Positions 1,749 through 27,284 of a stretch of 64,000 nucleotides of DNA are shown here, one piece after another (positions within the stretch are counted from its first letter, which is position 1; each line of letters starts with the position of its first letter). Under the pieces are notes generated by a model. It did no database searches, had not been told where the DNA came from, and saw only the letters and a list, made by a program, of their open reading frames with translations. The DNA is from Patescibacteria group bacterium. GTDB lineage: Bacteria > Patescibacteriota > JAQUNI01. The stretch lies in contig JAQUNI010000001.1 in NCBI GenBank assembly GCA_028717685.1, positions 271,451 through 335,450 of the forward strand. The letters are read 5' to 3'. The position numbers and the translations under genes are program-made.

Positions 1749-4700
1749 TTACCTCATAATGATCATCTTTTTAAAAGCGGCAAAACCTCCCGCCTGAAAA
1801 GTATAAAAATAAATGCCGCTTCCCACCCTTTCTCCTTTTTCATTTTGACCATCCCAATAAGCCGCCTTATCCGGACCTGTATAAAATCCGGCGCGTTTGC
1901 GCCCCAACGGGAGTGCGCGCACAAGCTCCCCTGCTGTCGTGTAAATCATAATTTCTACATTTGCTTCGTCCCTCAATTCATAAGGAATCCACGTTTCCCC
2001 ATTAAAAGGATTAGGGTAATTTTGACCCATACTGTTATCTTGAGCAATGGTGGAAGTAGAGGGAGAATCAGGAATAGATGAGTCTTGAACCGCTGAAGGT
2101 TCTGCTTTGAACACACTCCCTGTTAAAAAAGTCTGTTCAAATGTACCATCGCCATTCGTATCCATCTGGATAGTTACTCCTTTCTCACCCGCGGCTGAAG
2201 CCTCCCAATTAATGGAATACTGATGCACTGCACCCTCGGCAATGTGGATATCCAAGGTATTAAAAATGATCGGATTCAGTCCCTCCTCCTTAAGCAGGGT
2301 AACTTCTAATTGATAATCGCCCTCGCGCGCGCCTACCACCTGAAATTGATATTCCCCCTTTGGATCAGACAAAACCACAGTTTGAGCTGCTTCTGGACCG
2401 TAATAGCCAGTGTAATAAGAATGAGGAATGTCTGTCAGAATACTACCAGCGCCCGTATAATTCCCTTCCGCGTCAATAACTTTAAGCTTGACCACTCCCC
2501 GAGCAGTAAGAGCGATATGAGGAGATTTTGGAACAGAAAAGCATTGCCAAGAACTGACCTTGCCGCCCACGATTTCTATGACCCGAAAACCGAAATCACC
2601 TTTCGTAGCGCTCGCGGTCTGCAGAAAATAAGGATCAAAGGAACCTAGCTCTTCTATCTGGCTGCCCTCGGCGTCAAAATTTTGATTTTGATGCGTATGA
2701 CCACTTAAAACTAACTGCACATTATATAATTTGCAGTAAGTAAGGAAAGGATCACGGAAGTTTGCAATCGCGGCGTCTTCATATTCTCCGCCGGTTCTCT
2801 CTCCTTTATCTTTTCTTCCAGTGAAAACCGGATGGTGCATAAAGATAATTTTTTTACTCTCTTTCTTAAAACGAGTGAGCGCAGAAATTTGGGCGTCCGC
2901 TAAGCCATTTCCTTCAGGACCCAAATCCTTTAGGTTCACTTTTTGCCAGTCGCCTGCTTCCAAGTCTAGCGCGAAATCTTCTCCTGAATCTAAACCGATA
3001 AAAAGATAGTTTTGATATTCAAACGAGAAGTTATCATAGCGCGATTCAAAATTGGCAATAAGCGGTTTGACCCCTAGATTTTCCAGATAAGGATAAGTTC
3101 CTTGATGATAGCTTCGCAACATATCATCCCCAAAACCTAAAAATCCGGAAACTGGCGCGCCATACCAAGTGTAGCGGTCATGATTGCCAGGCACAAAGTA
3201 AACTGGAATGCCGCTACCCTTGGTAAAGGTATCGATAAAGGAGATAAAGGTCGCAAACCATTCGTTTTTACTATATTCCACATTATCGCCACTTATTAAA
3301 ACAAAGGCTGGCTTCGGGTCTAAAGTGTTGATCTTTTCCAAGGTCAGGGCAAAATTGCAGTAAGACTTTTCTTCCGACCAGTCAAAGTTATTGCCGCCAA
3401 TATGAACATCGGTGATATGGACAAAGGAAAATGGCGCAGATAATGGAGGAGTATTACCAAAACGGAAAATGAATAAACCATCATAACCCGCCAAATAAAT
3501 ATAACCCCCTGCGGCACAAACCTGTCTTGCCGCTTTGGACGCATTATGAAAACCTATCTCTTGAGGATTGGCTTTGTCTCTAAGATCAATAATCCGCAGT
3601 CCTCCCCTATAATCCGCGAGATAAGCAAAATAATCATCCACATCCACAGCGTAAGCTTCACCGGGAGTATCTAGAGACCCCACAAGGCGCGGCGCTACAG
3701 GGTTGGCAACATCCAAAATCTTAAAACCCGCTCTCCAATCCGCCACGTAAGCATAAGAACCCTCTACCCGCACATCATTTGCAGAAGAAGTGGAATAAAA
3801 TCCCACTTCTTTAGGACTAGAAGGATCAGAAACATCAATAATCCTTAAACCCAGGCGAGAATCCGCCAGATAAATATAATCACCGGAAAGGTATATTCCA
3901 CTGATGCTGCACGAAATTCTGCAAACACTGACAATCCACGGCTTCTTAGGATTCGCGATATCAATAATAAGGAGCGAACAGCCGCTAACCACATAGGCAT
4001 AACCGCCTTGAACATAGACTCTATTAATATCTTGAGAAGCCTGCACCAAAGCGAGAGACTGGGGATCTGCCGGTTGGCTAATATCCACTATTTCTAACCC
4101 TTTATACCGTTTAGCTAAAAACAGAAGCGAATCCATTCCCGCGATGGCTTCAATGTCGTCAAGAACACTGTGACGAGCAATCTCTCGCGGTTCACTAGGA
4201 TCAGAAATATCCAAAATCCGCAACCCGAAACCCTCGCTGGCAACATAGGCGTAACCCTCGTGGACATAAACATCGGTAAATCTGCCGGCTGTGTCATAAT
4301 GCCCAACCTCTTGGGGATTCTTCGGATCAGCAATATTGATAATCCTCAACCCAGCGTTTTCACTGCCCACGTAAGCGAAATTACCATCAACCCAGACGCC
4401 GCGCGCGAATCCTGGCGCGACAAAAAAACCCATCTCTTGGGGATTTTCGGGGCGCGTTACATCAATAATCCGCAAGCCTTGATCTTGGTCGGCAACATAG
4501 GCATATTGTCCTCTCACAAAGACAGCAGAAACATACGCCGCAGATAAGGAACAAGAAGCGAGTTTCCGAGGCGAAAAGGGGTTAGCAATATCTATAACCA
4601 TTAAACCGTAATCGTTATAAAGCACATAGGCGCAATTTCCTTCTATAACCACACTCCAAAAACGCGCTCCAAAATTACCACTGCCTACAAGACGAGGGTT

Positions 4701-5261
4701 CTTGGGATCAGAAATATCAACAACCTTTAGTCCCTCCTTGTCTGCCGCGACATAAGCATACTGACCCGCAACCTTTACATCAGAGGCAAAGGTACTAAAA
4801 AATCCAATCTCCAGAGGATTTCCAGGGTCGGAAACGTCAATAATTCTCAAACCCCCTTCGCTGTTAGCAAGATAAACATAATGGCCGGCAACATCAATCC
4901 CGTCCGCGTAACCCGACAGATGTAAAACAGCAATCTCCCGGGGGTTGTTATGTTCAGAAACATCAATAATCCTAAGCCCTGCTACCCAATCAGCTAAATA
5001 CACTAAGTTTCCCCGGACGCAAATGTCTTTCGGCATAGAACCAAGATACAGTCTGCCCACCTCCACCGGCTGCCGAGGTTCTATAATATCTAAGATCACC
5101 AAAGCCTCACCCGCGCTCAAATAGCAGTAATCGCCCGCCACGCACACATCATACGCTGTCCCTAAACCCCACCTTGCTACCAATTCCACATTTTCTCCCA
5201 CAACGCAATTCACAAAGCAAAACAGAATCAAAAATACTATTCCTAAAAGCATCCGTTTCAT
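1749..5261 (-). CDS. Secreted LVIVD-repeat protein + calcineurin-like metallophosphoesterase + C-terminal FlgD-Ig/T9SS-type-A-like sorting domain
   Basis: Signal peptide; about 13 YAYVAD..GLRIIDVSDP repeats; DVH, GDN, GNHD, HHP, GHTH motifs; terminal QNYPNPFNGETWIPY...AAYWDG...SGIYFY; AGGAGG SD. Confidence 0.88.
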   Translation of the reverse strand: MKRMLLGIVFLILFCFVNCVVGENVELVARWGLGTAYDVCVAGDYCYLSAGEALVILDIIEPRQPVEVGRLYLGSMPKDICVRGNLVYLADWVAGLRIIDVSEHNNPREIAVLHLSGYADGIDVAGHYVYLANSEGGLRIIDVSDPGNPLEIGFFSTFASDVKVAGQYAYVAADKEGLKVVDISDPKNPRLVGSGNFGARFWSVVIEGNCAYVLYNDYGLMVIDIANPFSPRKLASCSLSAAYVSAVFVRGQYAYVADQDQGLRIIDVTRPENPQEMGFFVAPGFARGVWVDGNFAYVGSENAGLRIINIADPKNPQEVGHYDTAGRFTDVYVHEGYAYVASEGFGLRILDISDPSEPREIARHSVLDDIEAIAGMDSLLFLAKRYKGLEIVDISQPADPQSLALVQASQDINRVYVQGGYAYVVSGCSLLIIDIANPKKPWIVSVCRISCSISGIYLSGDYIYLADSRLGLRIIDVSDPSSPKEVGFYSTSSANDVRVEGSYAYVADWRAGFKILDVANPVAPRLVGSLDTPGEAYAVDVDDYFAYLADYRGGLRIIDLRDKANPQEIGFHNASKAARQVCAAGGYIYLAGYDGLFIFRFGNTPPLSAPFSFVHITDVHIGGNNFDWSEEKSYCNFALTLEKINTLDPKPAFVLISGDNVEYSKNEWFATFISFIDTFTKGSGIPVYFVPGNHDRYTWYGAPVSGFLGFGDDMLRSYHQGTYPYLENLGVKPLIANFESRYDNFSFEYQNYLFIGLDSGEDFALDLEAGDWQKVNLKDLGPEGNGLADAQISALTRFKKESKKIIFMHHPVFTGRKDKGERTGGEYEDAAIANFRDPFLTYCKLYNVQLVLSGHTHQNQNFDAEGSQIEELGSFDPYFLQTASATKGDFGFRVIEIVGGKVSSWQCFSVPKSPHIALTARGVVKLKVIDAEGNYTGAGSILTDIPHSYYTGYYGPEAAQTVVLSDPKGEYQFQVVGAREGDYQLEVTLLKEEGLNPIIFNTLDIHIAEGAVHQYSINWEASAAGEKGVTIQMDTNGDGTFEQTFLTGSVFKAEPSAVQDSSIPDSPSTSTIAQDNSMGQNYPNPFNGETWIPYELRDEANVEIMIYTTAGELVRALPLGRKRAGFYTGPDKAAYWDGQNEKGERVGSGIYFYTFQAGGFAAFKKMIIMR

Positions 5262-5370
5262 AACGAACCCTCCTTAATAAAAATATACCAAGAATACTAG
5301 AATCCCTTTCTATATTTTCACAATAATTTGTCAAAGGACCTTTTCAAAAAATAAGATTCTGAAATTTTAC

Positions 5371-5847
5371 TTAAATATTCAGCCTCCAAATGGAAAAATT
5401 CAATATGGCTGCGAAACTTACCCAAAGTATATAGGGTAAAAGCAAAAGTCCGGCAACGCGGCTGATGCGGTAAAAAACAATAACCGTAGCTAAAATGGAA
5501 AGCCACAAAATAAGAATTTCCAGAAAGGCTATTTGGGGAGAATGCAAGCCAAAAAATAAACTTGACCACAAAACATTGAGCATAAGCTGCCCAAAAAAGA
5601 TGGAAAGCGCCCTCTCCCTTTCTCTACCCCCGCCCTTTTGCCAAACTAAATATAATGCAATCCCCATTAAGAGAAAAAGCGTGGTCCAAGCTGGCGCAAA
5701 AACCCAATTCGGCGGAGAAAAGCTGGGTTTGACCAGAGAAGCGTACCACCCCGGAATCGCCGGCATAGTAAAAAGCGAACCTAGAACTCCCACCCCTTGG
5801 CAAACCACGACAGAAACGATAAGTTGAACAATCTTTTTACTTCGCAT
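5371..5847 (-). CDS. tspO: TspO/MBR tryptophan-rich sensory protein
   Basis: WYASLVKPSFSPPNWVFAPAWT and LLPYILWVSFAAILN. Confidence 0.93.
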   Translation of the reverse strand: MRSKKIVQLIVSVVVCQGVGVLGSLFTMPAIPGWYASLVKPSFSPPNWVFAPAWTTLFLLMGIALYLVWQKGGGRERERALSIFFGQLMLNVLWSSLFFGLHSPQIAFLEILILWLSILATVIVFYRISRVAGLLLLPYILWVSFAAILNFSIWRLNI

Positions 5848-5993
5848 ATTTTTATTTCCCTTACGATTAATTTTTAAAAAATTAAACTAATGTTTCTTGC
5901 ACTATTGCTAATTATTATATTTTATGTTATGATAATATGTTCGTCTTAAACCACAGAGCTGGCATTATAACACAAAAAAGGAGAGATTTAGCT

Positions 5994-6347
5994 ATGGAAG
6001 AAAGATTGCAAAAAGTTCCGGCATTGAAAATTGTTCTTTCTATTTTTTTCGTCATTGTCTTGACAGGGCTACCCATCCTGCACATCTCACACGCGCCGAG
6101 AATAGAAATTAATCCAATAAAGAAGGTTGTAAATTCAATTGTTGTCGCTATCGCCTTCATCCTTACTTACGGCATAGGGTTTGTGGTGATTATTAAAGAC
6201 ATCATCAACAAATTCCGAAGGAAAAAAGTGAATAACGAAAGTTTCTTTGTTATTTGGATCCTCTTCTGTGTGGGCGTTCCTATTCTATATATGCTTTTGG
6301 GAACAATTTGGGGTAGGTTAGATCTAAGTGCGCTTTTTGACTGGTAG
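5994..6347 (+). CDS. Hypothetical small 3-TM membrane protein
   Basis: AGGAG SD before ATG 5994 (MEERL); three hydrophobic segments. Confidence 0.65.
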   Translation: MEERLQKVPALKIVLSIFFVIVLTGLPILHISHAPRIEINPIKKVVNSIVVAIAFILTYGIGFVVIIKDIINKFRRKKVNNESFFVIWILFCVGVPILYMLLGTIWGRLDLSALFDW

Positions 6348-6571
6348 CCCAATCCGTACATAAGTACGGATTTTTTTATTACCCTTCGAAGGATTTTTAA
6401 AATCTCGCGGGACGTAAATTTTTCGGAATCTATTACAAAGCTAATCAAATCTGGAGAAAAAAACAACTGGATGTAAATGATCAGCTATAAAAACAAAAAG
6501 GCACTAACTCAATCCACTAAAATTTGTTATAATCAAAGAAAGAAAAATAAAAATCCTAACCGCCCAAATCT

Positions 6572-7237
6572 ATGTCCAAGAAAAAAACCATTTTTCTAAG
6601 CCTCGGCATTCTCATTGTGATTGCGGTGGTGATTTTTCTGGTCTGGTTTATCCCCAACTATCGCCGCCATCTAAAAGTGCAAGAAAAATATGGTCCTCTA
6701 CCCACAGAGGTGGAAAGGATGGCAGAAAAATATGAGGCAATGGAAGAACATCCGCAAGTGACTCCCGAACAAAAAGAGGCAACAATCAAAGAGATTGAAG
6801 CGATCGCTCATAATCTTGTAAACGGCACCAATGATATTGGCGAACCGATTCTACCACCGAATGAAATCTTTGTCAATCCTGAAGTCTGGGATGAAACAAA
6901 ATATAGCGTCACCCTTGAGCTTTACGCCGATGGTCAAACCAGTGATGTGGCAATTAAGAAAAAGATGTGGCCTATGATTGGGAGAATTTTGAAAACCCTC
7001 TACACCAGCAAACAACCCATCGGCAGAGTCGTGATCAGCGTAACCCAGAAAGATACCTCGTCTTATGAAAAGATGGTGCGCACTGAATTATTGCTCCTCT
7101 TTTTAACAGCATCTGATGTAGAAAAAGCCAAGATTAACTGGAACCAGGACGAGCAAACCCTATACTTTAATGTCTTGCCCAATACATGGGAAACAGTGAA
7201 CATTGACCCTAATTTTGCCACGGCGCAAATTGACTAA
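6572..7237 (+). CDS. Hypothetical N-terminally membrane-anchored protein
   Basis: 221 aa ORF, basic N-terminus plus one TM helix. Confidence 0.75.
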   Translation: MSKKKTIFLSLGILIVIAVVIFLVWFIPNYRRHLKVQEKYGPLPTEVERMAEKYEAMEEHPQVTPEQKEATIKEIEAIAHNLVNGTNDIGEPILPPNEIFVNPEVWDETKYSVTLELYADGQTSDVAIKKKMWPMIGRILKTLYTSKQPIGRVVISVTQKDTSSYEKMVRTELLLLFLTASDVEKAKINWNQDEQTLYFNVLPNTWETVNIDPNFATAQID

Positions 7238-7332
7238 GCCAACGCACTTTTCTTTGGTGGTTTAATTCTTATGAATTAAACTCAATATTTCCGTAAATTG
7301 TTGGCAAGGGAGGGAACCTAAACTAAAAACTA

Positions 7333-7360
7333 TTGACAATATTGAAATATGTTGTATAAT
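7333..7360 (+). promoter_or_regulatory. Sigma70-type promoter
   Basis: TTGACA (7333-7338), 16 nt spacer, TATAAT (7355-7360), upstream of the 7430 gene. Confidence 0.7.
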
Positions 7361-7429
7361 TATTAAGCTCCATTTCGTGCTGTTCCTTTCACTTTTATAA
7401 CGTATATTTTTTATTCAGGAGGGATTGAA

Positions 7430-7906
7430 ATGAAAAAGAATCTGATTTCGGTTGTTTTATTGATGTTCTTGATAATAACAATGGTGCCTATTTTTGCCAA
7501 CAGCGAAGAAACGCATTGCGCCATTAATATAGAACCTGCAAAGACTGGTACTGAAGACAAAACCCAGCTGATGATTGTTGGGGGGTATATTGATGAAACA
7601 ATACAGGACCTTTTGCCCACGACAACAATAATCGTAGAGCTGAATGGCGTCAAGATCCCTGCCGAGATCCACGAAAATATGACATACACCGCGACATTTA
7701 TAACATTCGGAGGATATGTCGCAGGGGTTGGCGATGCTGTGACTATATCTATGGATAAGAATGGGGTAGAGTTGTTTTCAAAAAAGCATATTCTGACCCA
7801 AACGGAGATCAATGAAAAGAATTGTATAATTGATCTCGGGCTTTCATCCACAGCTACATCCCCCCTAAAAATTTGCCCCACAACTTGGGGAGCGCTAAAA
7901 AGATGA
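7430..7906 (+). CDS. Secreted protein ending in a TTWGALKR C-terminal motif
   Basis: AGGAGG SD, signal peptide MKKNLISVVLLMFLIITMVPIFA, terminal TWGxLK motif. Confidence 0.75.
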   Translation: MKKNLISVVLLMFLIITMVPIFANSEETHCAINIEPAKTGTEDKTQLMIVGGYIDETIQDLLPTTTIIVELNGVKIPAEIHENMTYTATFITFGGYVAGVGDAVTISMDKNGVELFSKKHILTQTEINEKNCIIDLGLSSTATSPLKICPTTWGALKR

Positions 7907-7984
7907 TTTCTGGATAAAAAATATTTTCCTAGGTTGTAACGATTTTTAATTCGGAGGTACAAAATAGTTCAAGACGCAAAGCTG

Positions 7985-8009
7985 AGGCAGTGACCATACT
8001 GCCTTTTTT
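7985..8009 (+). terminator. Rho-independent terminator
   Basis: AGGCAGT-loop-ACTGCCT followed by a T run. Confidence 0.65.
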
Positions 8010-8046
8010 ATTTTTCACGATTCTAAACTTTTTATTATATTTCCTC

Positions 8047-8076
8047 GTAGCTTTAGGTCTTAAGACCTAAAGCTAC
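8047..8076. repeat. Perfect 30-bp palindrome starting GTAG (REP-like)
   Basis: GTAGCTTTAGGTCTT|AAGACCTAAAGCTAC. Confidence 0.7.
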
Positions 8077-8109
8077 TCCGACGAGTTGTCTCAATCAGAA
8101 TGACTTTAC

Positions 8110-8640
8110 TTATTTAAACACAATCGGGATTTCGATCGCTGCGTCGTTTTCAGGCAGACCAGAAGGATTGTCTCGGCGCAAAATCAAAGTGCCCTTGTTA
8201 CTCACTTCAGTATTAGGTTTGGTAAATTTGATCGTGCCCTCAAAATCCACAAACTCCTCGGTCATCCATTCCCCTTTGGCTTCGGCATACCCATTGGTAA
8301 TAATTTTACCGTCCCAATCCATTAAGGACACGGGGAAGCTCCCTTCAAAATACCAAGTCCCCCGCGCTCGACCGCGCACAATTAACGGCGAGGCAATCGC
8401 CTCTCCGGGTTGCGGTGAAGTCACAACAATCATCTCATTGGTTTCCGCAGCAGGCGGGTTTGTCTCATCTCCTTCACTGTCTGATGTTGGCGGGATTGCC
8501 GTATCCTCTTCACCTTTGGGTGCAGGGGGGGTTACCTGTTGTTTTTCGCCCTGCTCACAACTTGCTCCCAAAAACAAAGAACCTGTAAGGAGCAAAAACG
8601 CCACTGTGCTAATCTTTAGGATGTTTTTTCTTTTGAGCAT
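8110..8640 (-). CDS. Lipoprotein with Gmad2 immunoglobulin-like domain
   Basis: Lipobox LGASC; SPLIVRGRARGTWYFEGSFPV...DNPSGLPEN pattern. Confidence 0.85.
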   Translation of the reverse strand: MLKRKNILKISTVAFLLLTGSLFLGASCEQGEKQQVTPPAPKGEEDTAIPPTSDSEGDETNPPAAETNEMIVVTSPQPGEAIASPLIVRGRARGTWYFEGSFPVSLMDWDGKIITNGYAEAKGEWMTEEFVDFEGTIKFTKPNTEVSNKGTLILRRDNPSGLPENDAAIEIPIVFK

Positions 8641-8768
8641 AGTTTTGTTTTGATTGGTTTGTTTAATTGCTTTTAAGTCTTTACATTAAAAATATAATGA
8701 TGGGCAAAGATATAGGCAAAAATTTATGGTTCAAATCAGGAGACCTGAATTAACAAGGATAAAAAAAC

Positions 8769-11700
8769 TTAGAGTTTTCTGTATTCGCAAATCTCCCGAA
8801 AATCACAATATTTACAGACATAGGGGTTAGGGCACGGAGCGAAGGAGGAAGATTTGATTTTTTGAATCGTTTCGGAAATGTCAGTTTTTAATTTGGTTAA
8901 CTCCTTATCGCTTCCTAAAAATGAAATCTCCTGATTATTTTTGAAAAAGTAAAAGGTTAGTTTTTGCGGCTTAAGGCGCAAAACTTCTTCCGCGGCTAAT
9001 TGGTAAAGCAGGAGCTGAGCGCGCTGGTCGCGGGTAAGACGCTCTCTTGCTTCCCCTGTTTTATAATCCACAATCGCCACCCCGCCATCTACTTCATCCA
9101 CGCGGTCAATGCGACCAATCACGACCGCGCCATCAATTTTTAAACGAAAAGCTTTTTCCACGCCCAGAACCTTGGGCCAATTGTTCTGACGCGCTTCATA
9201 AAATGTTTTCAGCTGTTTTAAGCCTTGTTGTTTATACTTTTTCTGCGTCGCTTCGTCTGGATACCAATCATCAATCCAAGCGTTCTCATAAATCTTTTTT
9301 AATGCCTCCCATGTAATTTTATTGCCCTTATTCCGCAGAGACATTACCTGCGACTTTTCTGTATTTCTAAATCCAAACAAATCGGTTTGCATGGCGTTTT
9401 CTTGGTTTTGCAAAAGATGAAACAAATCATACATTACCTTGTGCATTGCTTGACCAAAGCTATGCTGATAATGACCGCGCTTCGGGATGCGGATGCCAAA
9501 TTGAAACTTGTATTGCAAAGGGCATTTTTGGAAAGCCGCGAGCTGGGAAAAGCTAAAATGTTTAGGAAGCCTTAGGGCTTCTTGCGGAATTCTAATTGTT
9601 TTGGGAATCGCGATTTGCAAATCCTCCAAAACCCGCTTCTCTCGCGGAATAGATAGAGACGCGGAATCTTGCGTCTCTATATTTTTCGCGGCAATGTTGC
9701 ACTCAATCAAAAAGCGGGAGAGTTTTTTAGCTCTGGCGCCACCGTAATTTGCCGCCGAAGTGAAAAACACTCCTTCTTTGGCACGCGTTACGGCAACATA
9801 AAAAAGCCTCCGCTCTTCCTGAAGGTGAATATCACCTTCAGGCAAGATTTCTTTAACCAAGGAATCGGGAATCTCTATCGGGTCGCGGCGGTTGATACTC
9901 GGAAATCTTTTATCCACCATACCTACAATAAACACATAGCGGAATTCCAAGCCCTTCGCTTTATGAATCGTCATAATCTTAACCGCTTCAGGTCCGGCTT
10001 CCAGATCCATATCAAGCGCCCCCTCGTCCCCTGCTTCCTGCTCTAAGTTGATACGTTTAATAAAATCCTGGAGCCTCGCGCGGGTCGTAGTCTCGGTTTC
10101 AAAATTTTTAACTTTTTTGGCGAATTGATTTAAATAAAAAATATTGTCCCGCGTTTCCTGGTCGTCTTTGCCCCCTAAATATTTTAAATATCCAGAATCT
10201 TCCATAAAAGCGAAGAAGACGGCGTGAATTGTCGCGTCGCGGACAATTTGAGAATGTTTTTGAATCAAGGATAAAATTTTCCTGGTTTGATCCTTGCTCT
10301 CCGGGCTGATTCGCAAAAGGTCGGCTTGGAGAAGGGCGCGATACAGACTTGTGCCTTTGCGTCCCGCCCAATAATTCAATTCCACCAGATCTTCGGTTTT
10401 GATTTTGAAGATGGGAAGATTTAAAATGCGGTATAAGCTCGGGCTTTCGTGGTAATTATCCAGAAGATTAAAATAAGCGAGGACATCCATAATAATCGGC
10501 TTTTTGTATAAGCCTCGGCTCGCAGCCCAAACATAAGGCACGCCCGCTTCTTTCAAGCCGTGCGCGAAAATCTCGGAGATTTCATTGGTGCGCGACAGGA
10601 TGGCAAAATCGTTCCAAGTCAAATCTTTATTCCTTTGTATTAAATCCACCATCTTTTTGACCACTTTTTCCACTTCTCTCTTCTGATCCGAAAGATGCAA
10701 ATGTTCCACCATCCCTTTCTCGCCAGTTTGCGACTGCAACTTTTTGCTCACTTTGCCGCCGAGCTTAACCTCTAGGCGTTCCGGATTATTGAGTTTAATA
10801 AATTCATAAGATAAATCCAAAATATTCTGGCGCGAACGGTAATTATTGGTAATAAAGACTTCGGCAGAATCCGGATAGTCGCGTTTAAATTCCAAAATAT
10901 TGGAAACTGACGCCCCGCGGAATTTATAGATTGATTGGTCATCGTCGCCAGTCACGGTCAAATTGTTTTCAGGCCGGCTGAGAAGTTTCACTAATTCGTA
11001 TTGCGCGTAATTGGTGTCCTGAAATTCATCCACGAGAATATATTTAAAACGGTTTTGATAAAGGGCTAGAACCGAGGGGCGCGACTGCAAGAGTTTTAAA
11101 GCGTAATTAATAAGGTCGCCAAAGTCCAAAGCATTGTTCTGCAGTAATAAGTCTTGATATACTTTGTACGCTTTGGCGACTTCCAAAAGCCGCTCCCCTT
11201 CCCCACTCGCGCGGTCTCTTTCCTCCAGAGCCGCGCCCTGATCCAGTTTCATGTTCTCGGCATATTCCAAATATTCCGCGGGTGAGATTAATTCATCTTT
11301 TAAACGCGAGAAGTGCTGAACAAGGGCTTGGATAAATTTAGTCGGATTGCCCAAGGGTTTGTAATAATCTAGATCAAATTTGTCCAGATTTTCGCGAATT
11401 AAAATCCATTGGTCTGTGGCGTTTAATAATTTAAAATCATTGGGGAGACCGATGTCCAAGGCGTGCTCTTTTAAAATCCTTTGCCCCAGCCCGTGAAAGG
11501 TATCAATCCAAATATCCACATAGCCATAGGGCAAAAGCTCGTCCACGCGATTCTCCATTTCCTCGGCGGCTTTTTCCGTAAAGGTTACGGCTAAGATTTC
11601 TTCGGGCTTGGCTAAACCTTTGTAAATCAAATAGGCAATGCGGCGGGTAATGACCGTAGTTTTTCCAGTCCCCGCGCCAGCCACAATTAAAAGCGGACCC

Positions 11701-17318: not shown

Positions 17319-17390
17319 TTGCGGGAGGGGGATTCGAACCCCCGACCTCGAGGTTATGGGCCTCGCGAGCTACCACTGCTCTATCCCGCG
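17319..17390 (-). tRNA. Initiator tRNA-fMet(CAT)
   Basis: CGCGGGA 5' end with C1:A72 mismatch; CGAGG-CCCATAA-CCTCG anticodon arm. Confidence 0.92.
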
Positions 17391-17579
17391 ATAATTCAAC
17401 ATCTTATTTTAAACAAAGCATTACTTACAAATATAACATAGATTAACAAAAAAGAAAAGTCCCCATCGGAATTTTAAATTTTAATTTCTAAATTTTAAAT
17501 CAATTTTAAAATCCTAATTTTAAAATAAATAAAAAGAGAGGAAATTTTAAAATTAAAAAATTTAGAATTTAAAATTAGT

Positions 17580-19037
17580 TTAAATATTCGGTTTCTTTTT
17601 ATGCCAATCTGTCGCCTGCTCATACTGATAGGCTACCTGCAAAACCTGCTCCTCACCCCACCACGGACCGATAATCTGCAAACCCACGGGCAAATTATGA
17701 GAAAAGCCGCAAGGAATGGAAATCGCCGGCACGCCTGCGATATTCACAGGCACAGTGAACACATCAGACAAATACATAGAAAGCGGGTCTGACGCTTTTT
17801 CGCCAATCTTGAAAGCAGGGGTCGGAGAAACGGGAGTAACCAGCGCGTCCACTTTGCGAAACACCTGCTTAAAATCATTGATAACCAGCGTCCGCACCTG
17901 CTGCGCTTTTTTGTAATAAGCGTCATAATAGCCCGCGGACAAAACATAAGCGCCGAGCATAATCCGGCGGCGCACTTCAGATCCAAAACTCTCGGCACGC
18001 GAATTGAAATAATGCTCCTCCAGATTTTTCGCCTCTTTAGCGGCGTAGCCATAACGAATACCATCAAAACGCGCTAAATTCGCCGAAACCTCCGCAGGCA
18101 TTAAAATATAGTAAACCGCCAAGGCGTACTTAGTATGGGGCAAGCTTACTTTCCTCACTTTCGCCCCCAGCTCTTTGAGTTGTTCTACCGCGTTATTTAT
18201 TTGTTCCGCCACTCCCTCTTCCATACCTTCCCCCGCATATTCTTGCGGCACGCCGATTTTCAAATTATGAAGACCGCGAGTCAATGTTTCCGTGTAATCC
18301 GGCATAGCATTAGTGCCGCTTGTTGAATCGCGAGAATCATGGCCGGAAATTATATTTAAAACATAAGCGCAATCTTCCACGGTTTTCGCAAACGGTCCAA
18401 TCTGGTCTAAAGAAGAAGCCATAGCATGCAAACCATATCTGGAGACCCGACCATAAGTCGGTTTTAAGCCCACCACCCCGCACAAAGCCGCAGGCTGGCG
18501 GACAGAACCACCGGTATCCGAACCTAAAGCATAAATACATTCATCTGAAGCCACCGCGGCTGCAGAACCGCCGGAAGATCCACCCGGGACGCACCCCAAA
18601 TTCCACGGATTATGCGTTATCTGAAAAGCGGAATTTTCCGTGGAAGAACCCATCGCGAATTCATCCATATTGGTTTTGCCGAGCATGATTGCCCCTGCTT
18701 TTTTTAATTTTTGAACCACAGTGGCATCATAAGGCGGAACATAATTTTGGAGCGTCCGCGAAGCCGAACTCGTAATAACGCCTTTTGCACTAAGGTTATC
18801 TTTAAGAGCCACGGGAATCCCTTCCAAGGGACCAAGTTTCTTACCCCTTCTAATTTTCTCATCTACTTTTTCCGCGGCAGCGAGCGCTTGCTCTCCAGTC
18901 ACTCTTAAAAAAGCATTGATTTGCGGGTCTACTTGTTCAATGCGCCGCAAACAAACCTGGCTTAACTCTGTCGCAAAAATATCTCCGCTCTGGAGTTTGT
19001 CGTGCGCTTCTTGAATTGTGAGCTCGTTGAGATTCAT
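17580..19037 (-). CDS. gatA: Asp/Glu-tRNA amidotransferase subunit A
   Basis: GKTNMDEFAMGSS, PGGSSGGSAAAV, DTGGSVRQPA. Confidence 0.98.
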   Translation of the reverse strand: MNLNELTIQEAHDKLQSGDIFATELSQVCLRRIEQVDPQINAFLRVTGEQALAAAEKVDEKIRRGKKLGPLEGIPVALKDNLSAKGVITSSASRTLQNYVPPYDATVVQKLKKAGAIMLGKTNMDEFAMGSSTENSAFQITHNPWNLGCVPGGSSGGSAAAVASDECIYALGSDTGGSVRQPAALCGVVGLKPTYGRVSRYGLHAMASSLDQIGPFAKTVEDCAYVLNIISGHDSRDSTSGTNAMPDYTETLTRGLHNLKIGVPQEYAGEGMEEGVAEQINNAVEQLKELGAKVRKVSLPHTKYALAVYYILMPAEVSANLARFDGIRYGYAAKEAKNLEEHYFNSRAESFGSEVRRRIMLGAYVLSAGYYDAYYKKAQQVRTLVINDFKQVFRKVDALVTPVSPTPAFKIGEKASDPLSMYLSDVFTVPVNIAGVPAISIPCGFSHNLPVGLQIIGPWWGEEQVLQVAYQYEQATDWHKKKPNI

Positions 19038-19117
19038 TTATTTTAGTTCCTCCCCTGATAAGGGGAGGGTAGAAGGGATTATTAACCCCCTTTAATTCCC
19101 CCTTGTCAGGGGGAAAA

Positions 19118-19402
19118 TTAGAGGATTGGCTTTGTCTTCACACATCCCCCCTGATGCTCTGGTGCCATCTCTATAAGCTCTTTTTCCTGACCGAATTTCT
19201 CTACTTCGTCTTTGCGCATCACATTGGCAAAACCAGTCACTTGGCTTGTCGGTTCCACATTTTCCGTATCTACCTTATTGAGTTCATTTACATAATTAAG
19301 AATGGAAGATAATTCGCTCGCGAATTTTTCTTTCTCTTCAGGAGATATCCCAAGCCGCGCTAAATGGGCAATATGTTCTGTTTGTTGTTTAGTTAATTTC
19401 AT
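19118..19402 (-). CDS. gatC: Asp/Glu-tRNA amidotransferase subunit C
   Basis: HIAHLARL...LNKVDTENVEPT; adjacent to gatA. Confidence 0.96.
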   Translation of the reverse strand: MKLTKQQTEHIAHLARLGISPEEKEKFASELSSILNYVNELNKVDTENVEPTSQVTGFANVMRKDEVEKFGQEKELIEMAPEHQGGCVKTKPIL

Positions 19403-19478
19403 AAGTGTTTTAAAACTAAATTCATTCTAACATAATAAAATAACTATTGATAGAAATCTGTTTGTACCCATGGGTTTT

Positions 19479-21521
<2,043 letters not shown>

Positions 21522-21561
21522 TTAAAGTGAAAAATTTAAAATTGCAATTTAAAATTCAAAA

Positions 21562-21933
21562 TTACTTTCTACCTTTTAGCCTAAGCATAGAAGCACCTAA
21601 AATTTTGGAGAGTTCAATTGCCTCTCGCAATAAAGGGTCAACCAATTCTAGCTTGATCATCTTACTATCTCTAACTAAGCACAGCCAATACTTTGTTTCA
21701 TTAGCAGATTTTAAACTATGATTCATAAAATTTTTAAAATCGTTTTTAGAAGATGCCGCCTGGGCCTCAATAATATTGGCTCCTATAGAGGTTGCTGATC
21801 TTAGAAGCTGGTGATTAATAATTTTACAAACCCCGGAAGAAGATGTGCCATTAATTAGCTTTATAATATTGAGGGAGAATTTATAAGCTCTTAACTTCAG
21901 ATCATTTTTAAATTTTGAATTGCAATTTTGCAT
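21562..21933 (-). CDS. Four helix bundle protein (23S rRNA IVP / TIGR02436-like)
   Basis: QLLRSATSIGANIIEA...SANETKYWL signature; flanked by AT-rich heptamer repeats. Confidence 0.93.
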   Translation of the reverse strand: MQNCNSKFKNDLKLRAYKFSLNIIKLINGTSSSGVCKIINHQLLRSATSIGANIIEAQAASSKNDFKNFMNHSLKSANETKYWLCLVRDSKMIKLELVDPLLREAIELSKILGASMLRLKGRK

Positions 21934-22032
21934 TTGTAATTTTGAATTTTACATTATTATCATTATACAAAAAAACCCGCTCTTTTGAAAGGAGCGAGTT
22001 TTGGCTTTTTAAATTTTAAGTTTCAAAAAATA

Positions 22033-23583
22033 TTACGGCACTGGATCCAGAGTGGGTTGCCAGGGAGGCTGGTTAGCATTTAAAGTTTTAGCGGTGATAC
22101 GGGGAGAATAGGCGGAGCAACTGCAGAGATCGCACGCCGCCACTTCAAGCCAATAGCTGGTACTAGGAGTAAGACCAGATTGCAAACGGGTGGTCACATT
22201 GCCGACATTGACCGGCGTATTGTTATTGAGATGCGCTAAATAATAAGTGGCGCCAGAAACCGCATTCCAAGCCCAAGTGATAGAGGTAGTGGTTTGAGCC
22301 GTAGAACGCGCGTTTAGAGGAGCAGGGAGAGAGGGACAGGTGACAGTGATATTAGTTGTTGCGGTGGTGGTTAACCCGCCACGCGTTACAGTAATGCTGG
22401 CAGTTTTAGTCCCAGGCGTAGAATACCTGCATCTAAAAGAGCCACCACTAATATTGGAAATAGTGCCATCAGCGCCGCAACTCCGAGCCGAATAAGTGAT
22501 AGTGCCTGTGATTGTGCCGCCGACCGCGGTGGTAAGATCAGAAGCTTGGCCAGTGATAACACTAGCTGGACTAGCTGTCAAAGTGGCAGTTAGTGTGCCC
22601 GTGACTGTGATGCTAGATGACGCTGTTGTAGTTAACCCAGCTCGCGTTACCGTAATACTGGGATATTTATAGCCTGGTGTAGAATAGGTGCAGCTAAAAC
22701 TGCCATTGGTATAATTAATGTTGGAAATCGTGCCACCAGTACCGCAGCTCTGACCAGAATAAGTAATAGCGCCTGTGGCTGTGCCGCCGACCGTGGTAGT
22801 GAGATTAGATACTTGACCAGTAGTAATGCTAGCCGGACTGGCAGACAAAGCAGCAGTTAAGGTAAGGCAAGATTTTGTGCCCGCGCAGGTGCCGCCACAG
22901 CCATTAGAGCAAGTAGAACCAGTACAAGTATTAGCCGCGCAAGCACAGCTCGGAGCCTTGGTGCCCGCGCAGGTGCCGCCACAGCCATTAGAACAAGTAG
23001 AGCCAACGCAAGTATTGGCAGCACAAGAACAACTCGGCGACTTAGTACCTGCGCAAGTACCGCCACAACTATTATAACAAACAGAACCGACACAGGTGGA
23101 AGCAGCACAAGAACAATCTGTAATTTTGCAACCCACGTAATAGGTGGCACCACAACTATCAGAACAAGTAGAACCGGGACAAGTGTATAAGGCGCACTCA
23201 GAACTATGTATGCAACCATCACTACAACTCCCAGTATTAAATGTCTGGCCGTAAGTTTGGCAATACCCGCCACAAGAGGTGTCCTGCCCGTAACGGCTGA
23301 AATAATCAAGTCTTGCAGTTAGGACGCTGCCATTAGAGCAAGTCAAAGACGGCGTAGCGCAACCGACATAATTACCTGGGTTGCTTCCTGTGCACGTAGA
23401 ATCAATAAAAGTTGAGCTACATATTGACCAGCTCCCATCAGCACAATATATACAAATCCATCCTTGATAACAAGCAGTATGACATGTGTAGGAATAGGCG
23501 GCATTAGCTGTATGAGTGCCGAAAATAAGAATACCAAAAAAAATAGCAATCAAAATAACAACGTATTTACCTTGATGGATCAT
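22033..23583 (-). CDS. Secreted Cys-rich adhesin-like protein: Cys repeats, two PKD/Ig-like repeats, Fn3, C-terminal NQPPWQPTLDPVP
   Basis: Signal peptide; CAANTCxGSTCSNGCGGTCAGTK repeats; Fn3 ITWAWNAV...GLTPSTSYWLEVAA. Confidence 0.8.
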   Translation of the reverse strand: MIHQGKYVVILIAIFFGILIFGTHTANAAYSYTCHTACYQGWICIYCADGSWSICSSTFIDSTCTGSNPGNYVGCATPSLTCSNGSVLTARLDYFSRYGQDTSCGGYCQTYGQTFNTGSCSDGCIHSSECALYTCPGSTCSDSCGATYYVGCKITDCSCAASTCVGSVCYNSCGGTCAGTKSPSCSCAANTCVGSTCSNGCGGTCAGTKAPSCACAANTCTGSTCSNGCGGTCAGTKSCLTLTAALSASPASITTGQVSNLTTTVGGTATGAITYSGQSCGTGGTISNINYTNGSFSCTYSTPGYKYPSITVTRAGLTTTASSSITVTGTLTATLTASPASVITGQASDLTTAVGGTITGTITYSARSCGADGTISNISGGSFRCRYSTPGTKTASITVTRGGLTTTATTNITVTCPSLPAPLNARSTAQTTTSITWAWNAVSGATYYLAHLNNNTPVNVGNVTTRLQSGLTPSTSYWLEVAACDLCSCSAYSPRITAKTLNANQPPWQPTLDPVP

Positions 23584-23588
23584 AAAAA

Positions 23589-24128
23589 TTATTTTTTATA
23601 AACAGCTTTAGCCACGAAAGAATTCTGGTCAGAAATGCCCTGCTCGCTCAAAACAATAACCGTATCGCCAATTTCAAAATCAGTAAAAATTAAAACAGGC
23701 CAAGAATCTGCTTGACTTTGTGTGGAAGTACCCGAACCAAGACTAACTATTTCGGTTTGATCGTTTTTTTTAATAATTGAATAGGCACCACTCAACTGTT
23801 TCATTAGCGTTTTATCCGCAATTACCACCGCAAAGATCTTGCCTTTAAGAACTGGATTAAGCTCTTTATTATAAGATTTAATCATCAACGTCTGAGCTGA
23901 CGTATCAATACTTTCAACCGTGCCATTTAATACCGTGGCAGCGCCGGGCTCATATTCAAAGTGTTTGACATCGGCTTGTTCTTTGCCAGTCGTAGATAAT
24001 GGCGCTGGCTGATTAGTGTTACCGGGTGATATTTTAGAAGGAATGACAAAGAATATCCAATACACCAAAACAGCCCCTGCCAGAACCACTGCCGCGATAA
24101 TAATAATTATCAAAGTCTTTTTCCCCAT
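23589..24128 (-). CDS. Membrane-anchored DUF5666-like (OB-fold) protein
   Basis: N-terminal TM; GTVESID...T...DFEIGDTVIV...AKAV pattern. Confidence 0.65.
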   Translation of the reverse strand: MGKKTLIIIIIAAVVLAGAVLVYWIFFVIPSKISPGNTNQPAPLSTTGKEQADVKHFEYEPGAATVLNGTVESIDTSAQTLMIKSYNKELNPVLKGKIFAVVIADKTLMKQLSGAYSIIKKNDQTEIVSLGSGTSTQSQADSWPVLIFTDFEIGDTVIVLSEQGISDQNSFVAKAVYKK

Positions 24129-24172
24129 AAAATAAATACGTATCCTATATATAAAAAAGGTATTTTATTAGC

Positions 24173-24343
24173 TGGCTCCATAGTCTACGAGGCTAGTGAT
24201 AGTAGAGCCAGAATATACAAGATGGAGGCGTTAAAGTCGTTCAGACTTCTTCAGAACTAGAAGATCTGAAGAGATTAAAAATAACGGCCTGTATTTTGGC
24301 TCCACAGCCCCTCGCTTCGCTCGGGGACTATGGAGCCAACGAT
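24173..24343. mobile_element. REPIN/MITE-like element, second copy
   Basis: TGGCTCCATAGTC...GACTATGGAGCCAACGAT, two internal hairpins as at 11828-11971. Confidence 0.65.
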
Positions 24344-24349
24344 GGAATA

Positions 24350-26386
24350 TTATGGCACCGGTTCCAGAGTAGGTTGTCCGGGAGGCTGGTTACCACTTAG
24401 AGTATTAACCGTGACACGAGGAGAATAGGCGGAGCAACCGCAAAGATTGCACGCCGCCACTTCAAGCCAATAGCTGGTATTAGGAGTAAGACCGGATTGT
24501 AAACGAGTGGTCACATTGCCGACATTGACCGGCGTATTGTTATTGAGATGCGCTAAATAATAAGTGGCGCCAGAAACCGCATTCCAAGCCCAAGTGATAG
24601 AGATGGTGGTTTGAGCCGTAGAATGCACATTGGCAGGGCTGGGAAGAGAGAAAGCGGTATAGCACTGCCCATTCATTACATAGTCGTTGGCATTGCAACA
24701 AGCCGCCGTGCCGTCGCAAGCGCGAGCATTGGTGGGACTAATATACACTTCGCTGGCATCGTCGCTGCAACATTGAGCTTGGTTATTGGGCGGGGCAGAC
24801 TCTGGAAATTGAGAAGAGAGAAGCCAAACTCCGGTGGCTGTGGCTTTATTCGGGTTAGTTGCCGTGTTGTCCCATAGATTGGTTGCTCCTGTGCAGCAAG
24901 CCTGGCTCGTGTCAGGAGTGCAAGTGGCAGGGGCAACACAATTCACTGTGCATTCTTGTTTTTCATTAATATTACCACCTGAATATGTATTAGCGGGACA
25001 GGTAAAACTACCGGTGTCGGCAAAGCAACCGGCAGTAATCTTTAAATTTCCAGCAGTAACAGGACATTTCACGGTTCGCGATTCACTGCTCCAAGATCCC
25101 TGACCATTAATGTTAGAAGATTGACACCAGAGCACATCCCCCGAGCCAGATGTACATCCCGCGGCAGGTTGAATATTAGTAAGCCCCATCCTGACCTCAT
25201 AAGGAGAGCTAGGTCCGGTGTTGAAATATTCATAAGAAACATTAAAATTGGAACCGACATTAGCGCTAGTCGGACAGCTTAAATTGCGCAAGGAGCAGGT
25301 AGGATAATTAGTGCAATCTTTTGTGCCCGCGCAAGTGCCGCCGCAGCCATTAGAACAAGTGGAACCAGTGCATGTGTTCGCCGCGCAAGAACAATTAGGA
25401 GTTTTCGTGCCGGCAGGACATTTCTGACCACAACCATTATCTGGCTCCTGACCTAGACAATATGTGGAAGGGGCGGGACAAGAGGGCTGTTTGGTTCCCG
25501 GCGTGGAACAACTCCCGCCACAGCCATTACTCGGATGTTGGTTAGCGCAATAAGTGGAAGGATCAGGGCAGGAAGGGGCGCAAGGAGGACTTTGACAGAC
25601 TCCCCCGACACAATTGTGATTGCAACAATCTCCGGCAGAAATACAGCCTGAGACGCCATCCTCTAAACAAGGACCGCAGCAATCGCAGGTTCCGGAGGCG
25701 CAGGCGCTTTCAGGAATTCCGACGGCGGACAACAAATTTGGGCAAACATCATTCCCTACTCTGCAGGAAGCGCTTGTTGCTTGGCTGGTAGCACCCCTAT
25801 AAGAGCAAAAATCCACATTACAGGCGCGGCATTGCCTCCCTTCGCAAAAGGATCCACCGCAACACTCTGTGGCTGTACTACACGATTCACCAAGGGATTT
25901 GCAGGAGGGAGTTGAAGAACATTTACTTCCATATGAATCTTTATTGCATTGACATTTTTCCCCACTAGGACATCCGCTGCCCTCCCAACTATCCGTATGC
26001 CCTATAAAAGTATAAGAAGGTGTTCCATACCCCCCTATATCACACCTATGTGTCTCCTCTATATTACAATATACACATAAATCGGGTGTAATATCGTGGC
26101 AAGACCTTATCGAACCAGTCGTGCACCAACCACTTAGCTCTTGATAATTGAATCCATAAAACCAACCACTTGGACAACTATAATCTATCCACTTATTATT
26201 AGATCCCCACTTAAAATTATCATCCACAATACCACAGCTTTGTTCGCATGGTGTTACAGCTTTAGCTTCAGAATATAGGAAACTGAAAAAAATTATTGTA
26301 ATAAATAAAGGAGAAATAATTTGAAAAAATTTTACGGATAGCCATGAATTAGATAATTTTGCTATTTTTTGATTTTTATGTTTCAT
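24350..26386 (-). CDS. Secreted Cys-rich adhesin-like protein with Fn3 and C-terminal NQPPGQPTLEPVP
   Basis: Signal peptide; very Cys-rich; last about 95 aa nearly identical to the 22033-23583 product. Confidence 0.8.
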   Translation of the reverse strand: MKHKNQKIAKLSNSWLSVKFFQIISPLFITIIFFSFLYSEAKAVTPCEQSCGIVDDNFKWGSNNKWIDYSCPSGWFYGFNYQELSGWCTTGSIRSCHDITPDLCVYCNIEETHRCDIGGYGTPSYTFIGHTDSWEGSGCPSGEKCQCNKDSYGSKCSSTPSCKSLGESCSTATECCGGSFCEGRQCRACNVDFCSYRGATSQATSASCRVGNDVCPNLLSAVGIPESACASGTCDCCGPCLEDGVSGCISAGDCCNHNCVGGVCQSPPCAPSCPDPSTYCANQHPSNGCGGSCSTPGTKQPSCPAPSTYCLGQEPDNGCGQKCPAGTKTPNCSCAANTCTGSTCSNGCGGTCAGTKDCTNYPTCSLRNLSCPTSANVGSNFNVSYEYFNTGPSSPYEVRMGLTNIQPAAGCTSGSGDVLWCQSSNINGQGSWSSESRTVKCPVTAGNLKITAGCFADTGSFTCPANTYSGGNINEKQECTVNCVAPATCTPDTSQACCTGATNLWDNTATNPNKATATGVWLLSSQFPESAPPNNQAQCCSDDASEVYISPTNARACDGTAACCNANDYVMNGQCYTAFSLPSPANVHSTAQTTISITWAWNAVSGATYYLAHLNNNTPVNVGNVTTRLQSGLTPNTSYWLEVAACNLCGCSAYSPRVTVNTLSGNQPPGQPTLEPVP

Positions 26387-26392
26387 AAAAGC

Positions 26393-26421
26393 TTGACATA
26401 ATTAAAGAATTAATTTATACT
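26393..26421 (+). promoter_or_regulatory. Sigma70-type promoter
   Basis: TTGACA, 17 nt spacer, TATACT. Confidence 0.7.
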
Positions 26422-26519
26422 AAATTTAGTGATTGCTTCTAAAATCGTCTCTGAAATGTTTTGATTAAAGGATGATTAGCAAGAATTTTGTGACTCTTAG
26501 ATACCATGGAGGGTTTAAA

Positions 26520-27284
26520 ATGAAAAGAACTTTGATTGTTTTAGTTGTGTCCTTTATATTCGTATTAATGGTCAATGCTGATACCTCGGAAATATATATT
26601 CAGACGAAAAACCAGTCAGACATAGTGACATCAATTCCCGTTTTGTTTACTCAATCTAGATTTCTCATAATCTCCGTAGGGTTGCCGACATCAGAATTAA
26701 ACCCGAATATAACCACCGCAAAGGTTGCCCTAAACTGTAAGGTTATTGCTGTAGTAAGTAATTGCATCGCATCTATAAACGAAAACCAAGTTACCTTTAG
26801 CTGTATCCGTCCCGAGGGAGGATTTGGTAAAATTCTAGCTGAATGGCAAAGTGGACAAATTCCCACACTACCTAAATGTGATCCCCCTTCCTTGGCGATA
26901 GAAATGGAAAACCCTAAGATTTGGTCAGCCTCAGCACAACTACCGTTGGGCAGTATCTGTCAGATCAAAGCAATGGGTAGTACAATATGGGTCAAAGGAA
27001 GCAAGGTACGTTGGACCGATTGGAGTAATGTTGAACTCATTAATAGACCCGGCGACATAAATCTGGATGGTGTCGTGAATATTCTGGATTTAGTGGCAAT
27101 ATCAAAACAATTTGGTGTTCCAGTATCTCCAGAGGTCCCGGAGGATATGAACTGGGATGGAGTGATTAATAGAGAAGATCTAATGTTGGTGGGCGAAAAA
27201 TTCGGTACGAAATATAGTAGTGTCCCCCAACCCGCGCCTCCCAATCGGACCATTATAACCTGGTCTTCCATCAAATTAAGGTGA
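26520..27284 (+). CDS. Secreted dockerin-type-I domain protein with TWSSIK C-terminal motif
   Basis: GGAGG SD + MKRTL signal peptide; GDINLDGVVNILDLV...DMNWDGVINREDL duplicated EF-hand-like repeats. Confidence 0.8.
   Translation: MKRTLIVLVVSFIFVLMVNADTSEIYIQTKNQSDIVTSIPVLFTQSRFLIISVGLPTSELNPNITTAKVALNCKVIAVVSNCIASINENQVTFSCIRPEGGFGKILAEWQSGQIPTLPKCDPPSLAIEMENPKIWSASAQLPLGSICQIKAMGSTIWVKGSKVRWTDWSNVELINRPGDINLDGVVNILDLVAISKQFGVPVSPEVPEDMNWDGVINREDLMLVGEKFGTKYSSVPQPAPPNRTIITWSSIKLR

Follow-up and report, generated by a model that had tools for sequence, protein, structure and literature searches.

The window analysed here is a stretch of 64,000 nucleotides from a genome of the Candidate Phyla Radiation (CPR; Patescibacteria group bacterium, GenBank assembly GCA_028717685.1, contig JAQUNI010000001.1, positions 271,451 to 335,450 of the forward strand). 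It holds three genes, designated A, B and C, for putatively exported proteins whose C-termini resemble those of Poribacteria (Table 1). Gene A ends in a C-terminal domain (CTD) of the kind sorted by a type IX secretion system (T9SS), genes B and C in a short tail of the TWG type. From the letters of the window alone, the original prediction had proposed that the genes were acquired from, or mimic, a host whose surface-sorting machinery they possibly use. The three open reading frames (ORFs) were found where predicted and with the predicted C-termini, and their signal peptides were Sec-like by eye and by a hydropathy heuristic, the two means by which signal peptides were judged. The strong Shine-Dalgarno (SD) sites of all three genes were confirmed, as were the promoter-like sites of genes B and C. 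That the latter two genes lie opposite to their flanking genes was true of gene C, on both flanks, and not of gene B, which shares its strand with the upstream gene at 6572–7237.

SD matches of at least 6 nt preceded 90 of the 882 genes of the genome, against 14 of 672 internal controls; strong SD sites mark a minority class of about 10% of its genes, beyond genes A to C. The promoter-like sites of genes B and C were the best of their scans, in which the site totals were near chance (20 versus 13.0 ± 3.5 and 7 versus 5.2 ± 2.0).

Table 1. Genes A, B and C and their features in the window
Feature	Position	Strand	Description or evidence
Gene A (P0001)	1749..5261	-	1170 aa: signal peptide, LVIVD repeats, calcineurin-like phosphoesterase, beta-rich spacer, T9SS type-A CTD
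12 LVIVD repeats, residues ~23-603	3453..5195	-	PF08309, E 2.6e-115, 12 stretches
Metallophosphoesterase domain	2688..3428	-	PF00149, E 5.7e-18
Poribacteria-type CTD, residues 1078-1170	1749..2030	-	64% to Poribacteria genome G402; nearest Poribacteria CTD 132 bits, next phylum 85 bits (143-CTD panel)
SD site of gene A, TAAGGAGG	5269..5276	-	among the 22 strongest of 882 genes
Gene B (P0002)	7430..7906	+	158 aa: signal peptide, one Ig/CBM20-like beta-sandwich, TWG tail; no Pfam family
Promoter-like TTGACA-N16-TATAAT of gene B	7333..7360	+	12/12 consensus
SD site of gene B, AGGAGG	7417..7422	+	sequence
Beta-sandwich like the repeat unit of Poribacteria giant proteins (mostly 2500-3900 aa)	7553..7849	+	homology
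TTWGALKR tail of gene B	7880..7906	+	rank 1 of 3790 ORF ends
Gene C (P0003)	26520..27284	+	254 aa: signal peptide, beta-sandwich region, dockerin pair, TWG-type tail
Promoter-like TTGACA-N17-TATACT of gene C	26393..26421	+	11/12 consensus
SD site of gene C, GGAGG	26508..26512	+	sequence
Dockerin type I pair, residues 177-225	27048..27194	+	PF00404, E 9.7e-8, 32.5 bits (cut-off 22.9)
ITWSSIKLR tail of gene C	27255..27284	+	rank 2 of 3790 ORF ends

The three genes and their relatives

The source genome (G000) comprises 1.10 Mb in 5 contigs, with a completeness of 100% and a contamination of 0.14%. Together with three relatives (G001, G002 and G003) it forms what we call the family: four genomes in two genera, 98–100% complete, to which the nearest other genomes are related by phylum alone. 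The NCBI names of the members of the gene A cluster are Doudnabacteria and Parcubacteria.

The LVIVD repeats of gene A are likely to form a propeller that acts as an adhesin or scaffold. Its phosphoesterase domain contains all five metal-binding motifs (DVH, GD, GNHD, HHP and GHTH), which are kept in 4 orthologs. The ortholog in G001 is 92% identical and has the same genes downstream; the signal peptide, with a basic N-region and a hydrophobic core, is identical over 22 codons. Between these two genomes the ratio of non-synonymous to synonymous substitution rates (dN/dS) of gene A was 0.18 overall, against 0.20, 0.27 and 0.06 for neighbouring genes. The T9SS sorting model TIGR04183 gave 22.3 bits on the whole protein (cut-off 23) and 25.6 bits, above the cut-off, in the genome search, where gene A was the sole match of G000.

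The domain of gene B was modelled as a CBM20/transthyretin-like beta-sandwich (pLDDT about 90; best Z 8.1, for a common arrangement). Homologs of this domain were detected in 18 of 176 Poribacteria genomes (20–31% identity, best E 2.4e-14) and in none of 101 genomes of the KSB1 phylum. Members of the gene B family occur in all four family genomes, at three different sites, and in none of 197 other CPR genomes in a search with a profile that included the family members, which leaves the negative as its informative outcome. The domain is present twice in the homologs of G001 and G002 and once in that of G000, the tail having been kept after the loss; the G003 homolog, only 23% identical, ends in ATWGKIKKG. 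Between G000 and G001 the dN/dS of the domain was 0.12–0.16 and the TWG core was unchanged. Two Poribacteria genomes (G428 and G425; L294, L295) encode giant proteins of 3300–3650 aa with the gene B repeat. That of G428 carries an atypical CTD at its end, and its gene stands directly upstream of one judged by eye to be PorV-like.

Gene C, for which an upstream ATG at 26472 was also called as start, occurs in one of the four family genomes. In another assembly (L185), a 43% identical homolog is divergent from a homolog of the Cys-rich neighbour, with synteny kept. Homologs of gene C are 41–48% identical and the dockerin is the best-conserved part of the family (dN/dS 0.12 versus L185, with dS near saturation). 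In 7 homologs both dockerin calcium loops are conserved and the T and W of the tail are invariant (7/7). In P0112, a distant relative of full length, the C-terminus is the canonical VTPNGKLATKWGSLK. The beta-sandwich region has a weak likeness to cohesins and adhesins (Z 4–5.4), obtained with a weak model (pLDDT 61, four of the five models near 33), and a Foldseek search with the gene C model gave nothing clear. In its PF00404 pair and weakly cohesin-like sandwich gene C resembles non-cellulosomal cohesin-dockerin proteins, and its domain order is comparable to that of P0235, a Poribacteria-type protein with cohesin, dockerin and CTD. Dockerin matches were broad, with Poribacteria-type CTD motifs in 12 of 147 profile matches outside the family; the dockerin, which the original prediction had listed among features typical of Poribacteria and related diderm lineages, is on its own not diagnostic of Poribacteria.

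Beside gene C, at 22033–23583 and 24350–26386 (minus strand), lie two Cys-rich secreted paralogs with shared Cys repeats and near-identical Fn3-like C-termini. On short contigs, P0121, P0143 and P0196 are small proteins with a signal peptide, a double dockerin and a TWG tail, which may stem from Poribacteria or from further small symbionts of theirs.

The three genes lie on a 722-kb contig. DNA of the window is present in landfill runs from one study, one of which may be the genome's own source, and a groundwater run of a second study contains a related strain (28 of 30 bins covered); no RNA run was listed among those with this DNA. Genes A and B were joined to their surroundings in contigs from runs X2, X3 and X4, which showed 0 differences, those at gene A coming from X2 and X4. 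The examined genes had a G + C content of 0.41–0.45, and of 0.39–0.44 at third codon positions, compared with 0.42 for the genome; neither measure indicated foreign composition of the candidate genes. A chimeric assembly or contaminated bin might be suspected from other CPR bins, in some of which CTD matches lie on small contigs or contigs of odd G + C content (L154–L156, L158). For genes A and B this was ruled out by the bridged junctions and for gene C by the synteny in L185, with the length of the contig, the syntenic orthologs in G001 and the genome-like composition adding to the same side, and we consider its probability negligible. Genes A, B and C are real, have long resided in the family and evolve there under purifying selection.

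Donor of the sorting domain and the tails

A search for loci with the gene A CTD returned 77 genome loci. The best was a CPR ortholog, 15 of the next 16 were titled Poribacteria (52–61% identity), and 59 lower loci, not titled Poribacteria, had 29–46% identity. The top three clusters of an Atlas search with the CTD were most often Poribacteria, and among 176 genomes of the Poribacteria phylum 129 had matches at E ≤ 1e-33, the best in G402. In a panel of 143 CTDs the nearest was again from Poribacteria. Leaving out one locus at a time, the panel recovered 56 of 58 Poribacteria CTDs and gave a best or tied Poribacteria match to 4 of 85 others; it was unreliable outside Poribacteria, recovering 14 of 27 Bacteroidota and 20 of 28 Ignavibacteria. 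In a quick tree of 94 columns, 5 of the 6 CTDs of the family fell into a group with 18 of the 20 from Poribacteria (SH-aLRT 81). The predicted Poribacteria type of this CTD is thus borne out alike by the locus search, the Atlas, the 176 genomes and the panel. At L141:1894–4419, G003 encodes a vWA protein with a T9SS-like CTD beside a lipoprotein and a sugar-isomerase-like gene.

The TWG tail was said to be typical of Poribacteria and related diderm lineages, and TW[GA]x[LI]K was indeed abundant in a Poribacteria genome (G031): a degenerate DNA pattern of the tail had 185 matches there against 42 in the control, repeated and out-of-frame matches being counted. In CPR genomes the same pattern was at chance level (8–18 versus 5–14 in the control) and missed gene C. 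In Poribacteria loci picked around pattern matches, 56 proteins of differing folds share the C-terminal motif V-x-P-x-x-K-L-[AT]-T-T-W-[GA]-x-[LI]-K, and most of them have a signal peptide as judged by eye; in the checked subset of these loci no TWG peptide stood directly before a CTD. A matrix trained on 38 Poribacteria tails alone was used to rank the 3790 ORF ends of G000 and placed genes B and C at the top. Their 7-residue core scores were 22.8 and 15.8, respectively, compared with a training minimum of 13.8. A third loose match, the oxidoreductase-like ORF at C3:127518, was attributed to chance. A hidden Markov model (HMM) of the tail, run over 401 CPR genomes, had strong matches in G001 alone and matches at E 5e-4 to 0.05 in 13 others; of these the match in G079, the one inspected, was internal and not a tail. 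In the phylum of G580 the HMM found none in 41 genomes at E 1e-3 despite many candidates. Genes B and C resemble the Poribacteria proteins in that the core T-[TW]-W-[GAS]-x-[LI]-K ends signal-peptide proteins of unrelated folds. They differ from them in the upstream half of the motif, which is complete in the genes of the G001 island described below and degenerate in genes B and C. From the CPR copies it can be seen which residues of the tail persist (T-x-W-x-x-[LI]-K), a help in the search for its reader.

Further Poribacteria-like genes were found in the family. On a 119-kb contig, G001 has an island (L138, C7:20000–34500) encoding a subtilase and a 3-keto-disaccharide-hydrolase-like protein with TWG tails, as well as LysM and LVIVD proteins; one island gene with a canonical tail is 59% identical at the amino acid and 69% at the nucleotide level to a gene of Poribacteria genome G408. 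Beside the island lie what we take to be an insertion sequence (IS) and a comM-like gene. Another contig of G001 (L137, C8:1–5000) carries a LamG protein with a canonical tail. In G000, two lipoproteins with an FGE-sulfatase domain are encoded at C1:344479–345330 and 353723–355264 (L358) among very large membrane-protein genes; G001 and G003 have homologs in a syntenic position. Of the two, the first is 64% identical to a protein of G402 (71% nucleotide identity over 588 nt) and scored 300 bits against Poribacteria, compared with 244 bits against the family paralogs; its two nearest clusters in the Atlas were most often Poribacteria and the third Nitrospirota. G402 is the best match for both this lipoprotein and the CTD of gene A. 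Repeated transfer from Poribacteria into this CPR family is well supported by these comparisons.

TIGR04183 scored above its cut-off in 22 of the 401 CPR genomes, from many families; predicted T9SS-type CTDs are not unique to G000 within CPR. Lone genes with a signal peptide, flanked by core genes, account for many of these matches, as many as four of them in one single-contig genome; a part of the matches are probably contaminants, and the lowest-scoring ones are false. One CTD of G208 had its 19 top rows from two Cloacimonadota genomes, with 110 bits compared with 94 for the next phylum (5 genomes, 4 lineages). Stand-alone genes with a signal peptide and a T9SS CTD were seen at L145–L153, L157 and L298–L309 in many unrelated CPR, and G208 and G143 share a family while their CTDs look different in style.

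Sorting machinery and a candidate host

No reader of the CTD was found in the family with four family models. Omp85 (PF01103) was absent from all four genomes, and present with 9 matches in Poribacteria genome G031 and in 7 of 14 controls. PorV, SprA and peptidase C25 likewise each matched none of the four genomes and were all matched in G031, SprA below its family cut-off in a frame of 2229 aa. PorV was found in 5 of 5 further Poribacteria genomes and in none of 5 other CTD-bearing CPR. In line with the original prediction for CPR, a group without an outer membrane, neither T9SS components nor Omp85 were detected in the genome with these models. In a predicted complex, the gene A CTD and the PorV of G402 reached an ipSAE of 0.87, compared with 0.00 for the best of 3 controls; the runs agreed in at least 97% of contacts and the pLDDT of the partner was 86–87. 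Of 78 solved pairs 51 attained the score mark used, as did 2 of 108 mismatched ones. The model is read as retained likeness and not as binding, because complexes of PorV with CTDs have already been solved.

Known T9SS substrates are, in the available text of one source, exported by Sec and recognised in the periplasm, after which PorV hands them to the surface PorQUZ complex, where they are cleaved and attached by PorU; both PorV and PorU work at the cell surface (PMC10202324). Every type A CTD is recognised by PorV, reportedly through its structure and with tolerance, in the portion available of a second (PMC12618676). Gene A resembles T9SS type A cargo of Bacteroidota and the Fibrobacterota-Chlorobiota-Bacteroidota (FCB) group (TIGR04183/PF18962) in its signal peptide, its enzyme and adhesin cargo and its terminal immunoglobulin-like CTD. 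Such cargo, however, has its cognate SprA, PorV, C25 and Omp85 in its own genome, which were not found for the gene A genome; its CTD is the Poribacteria variant, and any processing would be in trans.

We favour, at slightly less than an even chance, the reading that the CPR family lives attached to Poribacteria, repeatedly took up envelope genes of this host and keeps their tags for capture by host machinery. Poribacteria are likely to be the host of the family, judging from the donors of its genes. The reading of the tags in trans by host machinery is unproven and falls a little short of evenly balanced. DNA might have entered by competence, with type IV pilus genes and a ComF-like gene in the window and the comM-like gene and IS beside the G001 island. 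The Sec system of the CPR would release the tagged proteins into the contact zone, no membrane anchor being apparent after the signal peptide. The gene A CTD would bind the surface-exposed PorV barrel of the host and could pass to a PorU-type C25 enzyme, so that the propeller-phosphoesterase would be held beside the symbiont, probably scavenging nucleotides or phosphate esters. The small tagged products of genes B and C would serve as adhesins or as decoys for whatever reads the TWG tail. We counted in favour of retention that the gene B tail was kept at 23% identity and after the loss of a domain, and that the family CTD sits on differing cargo (in G002 on a cargo without the spacer).

Several observations weigh against capture by the host. 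T9SS substrates are known to enter from the periplasm (available text of PMC10202324), and loading from outside was not found reported in the literature searched. The residues predicted to contact PorV showed no excess of conservation in close orthologs (7 of 39 changed, versus 13 of 54 of the other residues, p = 0.33), and the gene A CTD had a dN/dS of 0.35 (10 synonymous and 14 non-synonymous changes), compared with 0.16–0.20 for the rest of the protein; the CTD appears constrained, though no more than its cargo. The donor of the cargo is less clear than that of the CTD, and cargo and tag are loosely coupled, the phosphoesterase module having been shuffled onto many C-termini: it had 93 other matches under archaeal, CPR and other bacterial names with varied C-termini, and a Poribacteria-named protein (41%) was among the closest named ones. 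The donor of the G003 CTD is ambiguous (65.5 versus 64.3 bits) and its tree branch is long and unplaced. The upstream V-x-P-x-x-K-L half of the TWG motif is degenerate in genes B and C, which scored 11.6 and 6.8 on the full motif, where the training minimum was 21.9, and whose tails are missed by the Poribacteria tail HMM, and other lineages have proteins with the short TWG core as well (L155). Finally, the Poribacteria-like genes found all encode exported proteins or lipoproteins, but this envelope bias comes from a donor screen of exported genes and about 0.49 Mb of Poribacteria DNA and does not amount to a genome-wide count.

The loss of the upstream TWG half, the lack of extra conservation on the predicted PorV face and a selection on the CTD no stronger than on its cargo would suit a different explanation: Poribacteria are the host or long-term partner and the donor, but the tags serve the CPR itself, the CTD as a stable immunoglobulin-like cap or adhesin domain and the TWG core as a peptide that attaches to the surface of the CPR or to another of its proteins, and are not read by the host. 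The spread of CTDs over 22 of 401 CPR genomes from many families also suggests such generic use. However, the tags remain terminal and in the style of the donor, the donor varies by CPR lineage, with the CTD of G208 nearest to Cloacimonadota, and PorV remains a predicted fit for the gene A CTD, and we regard own use of the tags as rather unlikely. Poribacteria may also have been donors and not hosts, an abundant neighbour whose environmental DNA supplied useful cargo with tags as weakly constrained passengers. The competence-type genes, the wide movement of the phosphoesterase module between phyla and the donor identities of 59–66% at the protein level, which leave no very recent transfer, are in keeping with this. 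At least five unrelated gene families nevertheless lead to one phylum, partly to the same genomes, across two genera, and the tail survives an overall identity of 23% and the loss of a domain; such a passive origin we judge improbable.

That the family has a divergent reader of its own, for example a surface-display module, could be argued from the reliance of the absence tests on four family models. Against this stand the absence of Omp85, PorV, SprA and C25 from all four genomes despite their completeness of 98–100%, the very small clientele in G000 (one CTD and two TWG substrates) and the lack of PorV in the other CTD-bearing CPR, and we hold it to be very improbable. Of the original prediction, the Poribacteria donor, now seen for several independent genes, the missing T9SS and the intact contig were upheld. 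The genes are no recent gains: they are long-resident and vertically kept in one CPR family, which the original prediction had in part counted against itself and which makes for a stronger case for function.

Cultured CPR are lineage-specific episymbionts, Saccharimonadia on Actinomycetota and Absconditicoccaceae on Gammaproteobacteria, some of them with diderm hosts, according to the part of a preprint that was available (10.1101/2024.03.08.584096). They share with G000 a reduced genome, type IV pili and a VirB4-like ATPase; their hosts have been seen, whereas here the host is deduced from gene donors. A Gracilibacteria region possibly derived from a relative of Colwellia is an example of gene gain by CPR from a co-occurring bacterium (PMC6851277, available text). 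As in G000, foreign genes in a CPR genome were there traced to a community member; the present case differs in that several separate genes are involved, family-wide, all exported and with the sorting tags of the donor. The literature searched, which lay outside supplementary tables and most subscription journals, held no account of T9SS CTDs in CPR and none of the TWG tail, nor did it report Poribacteria to be hosts of CPR. New here is the convergence of several tags on one donor phylum across a whole CPR family. Very few CPR lineages have a known host, and several unrelated envelope genes here name a candidate host phylum family-wide. More generally, and with somewhat greater doubt than for the family itself, CPR epibionts may hijack host sorting in trans, the dialect of the tag naming the host phylum (Poribacteria here, Cloacimonadota for G208) for the roughly 5% of CPR with domains of this kind. 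Reading of the tags in trans, if it holds, would amount to a novel form of parasitism of bacterium on bacterium, and the style of the CTD would predict the host from the genome only.

Neighbouring genes

In groundwater run X5, contigs join across the gene at 6572–7237 (window 6376–7333) and resume at the promoter-like site of gene B. This gene seems to be variable and the promoter-like site kept. On the minus strand, the window contains a type IV pilus cluster at 30470–44410 and a TraG/VirB4-like ATPase locus with large membrane proteins at 55945–63933. A small gene beside ligA (21562–21933, minus strand) presumably encodes a four-helix-bundle-like protein and another (48509–48880, plus strand) presumably a GIY-YIG-like protein. 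Elsewhere in G000, SD-led clusters of exported proteins or lipoproteins of no obvious family lie at C3:111758–114255 (L359), C1:413092–416303 (L360) and C1:448176–456576 (L361).

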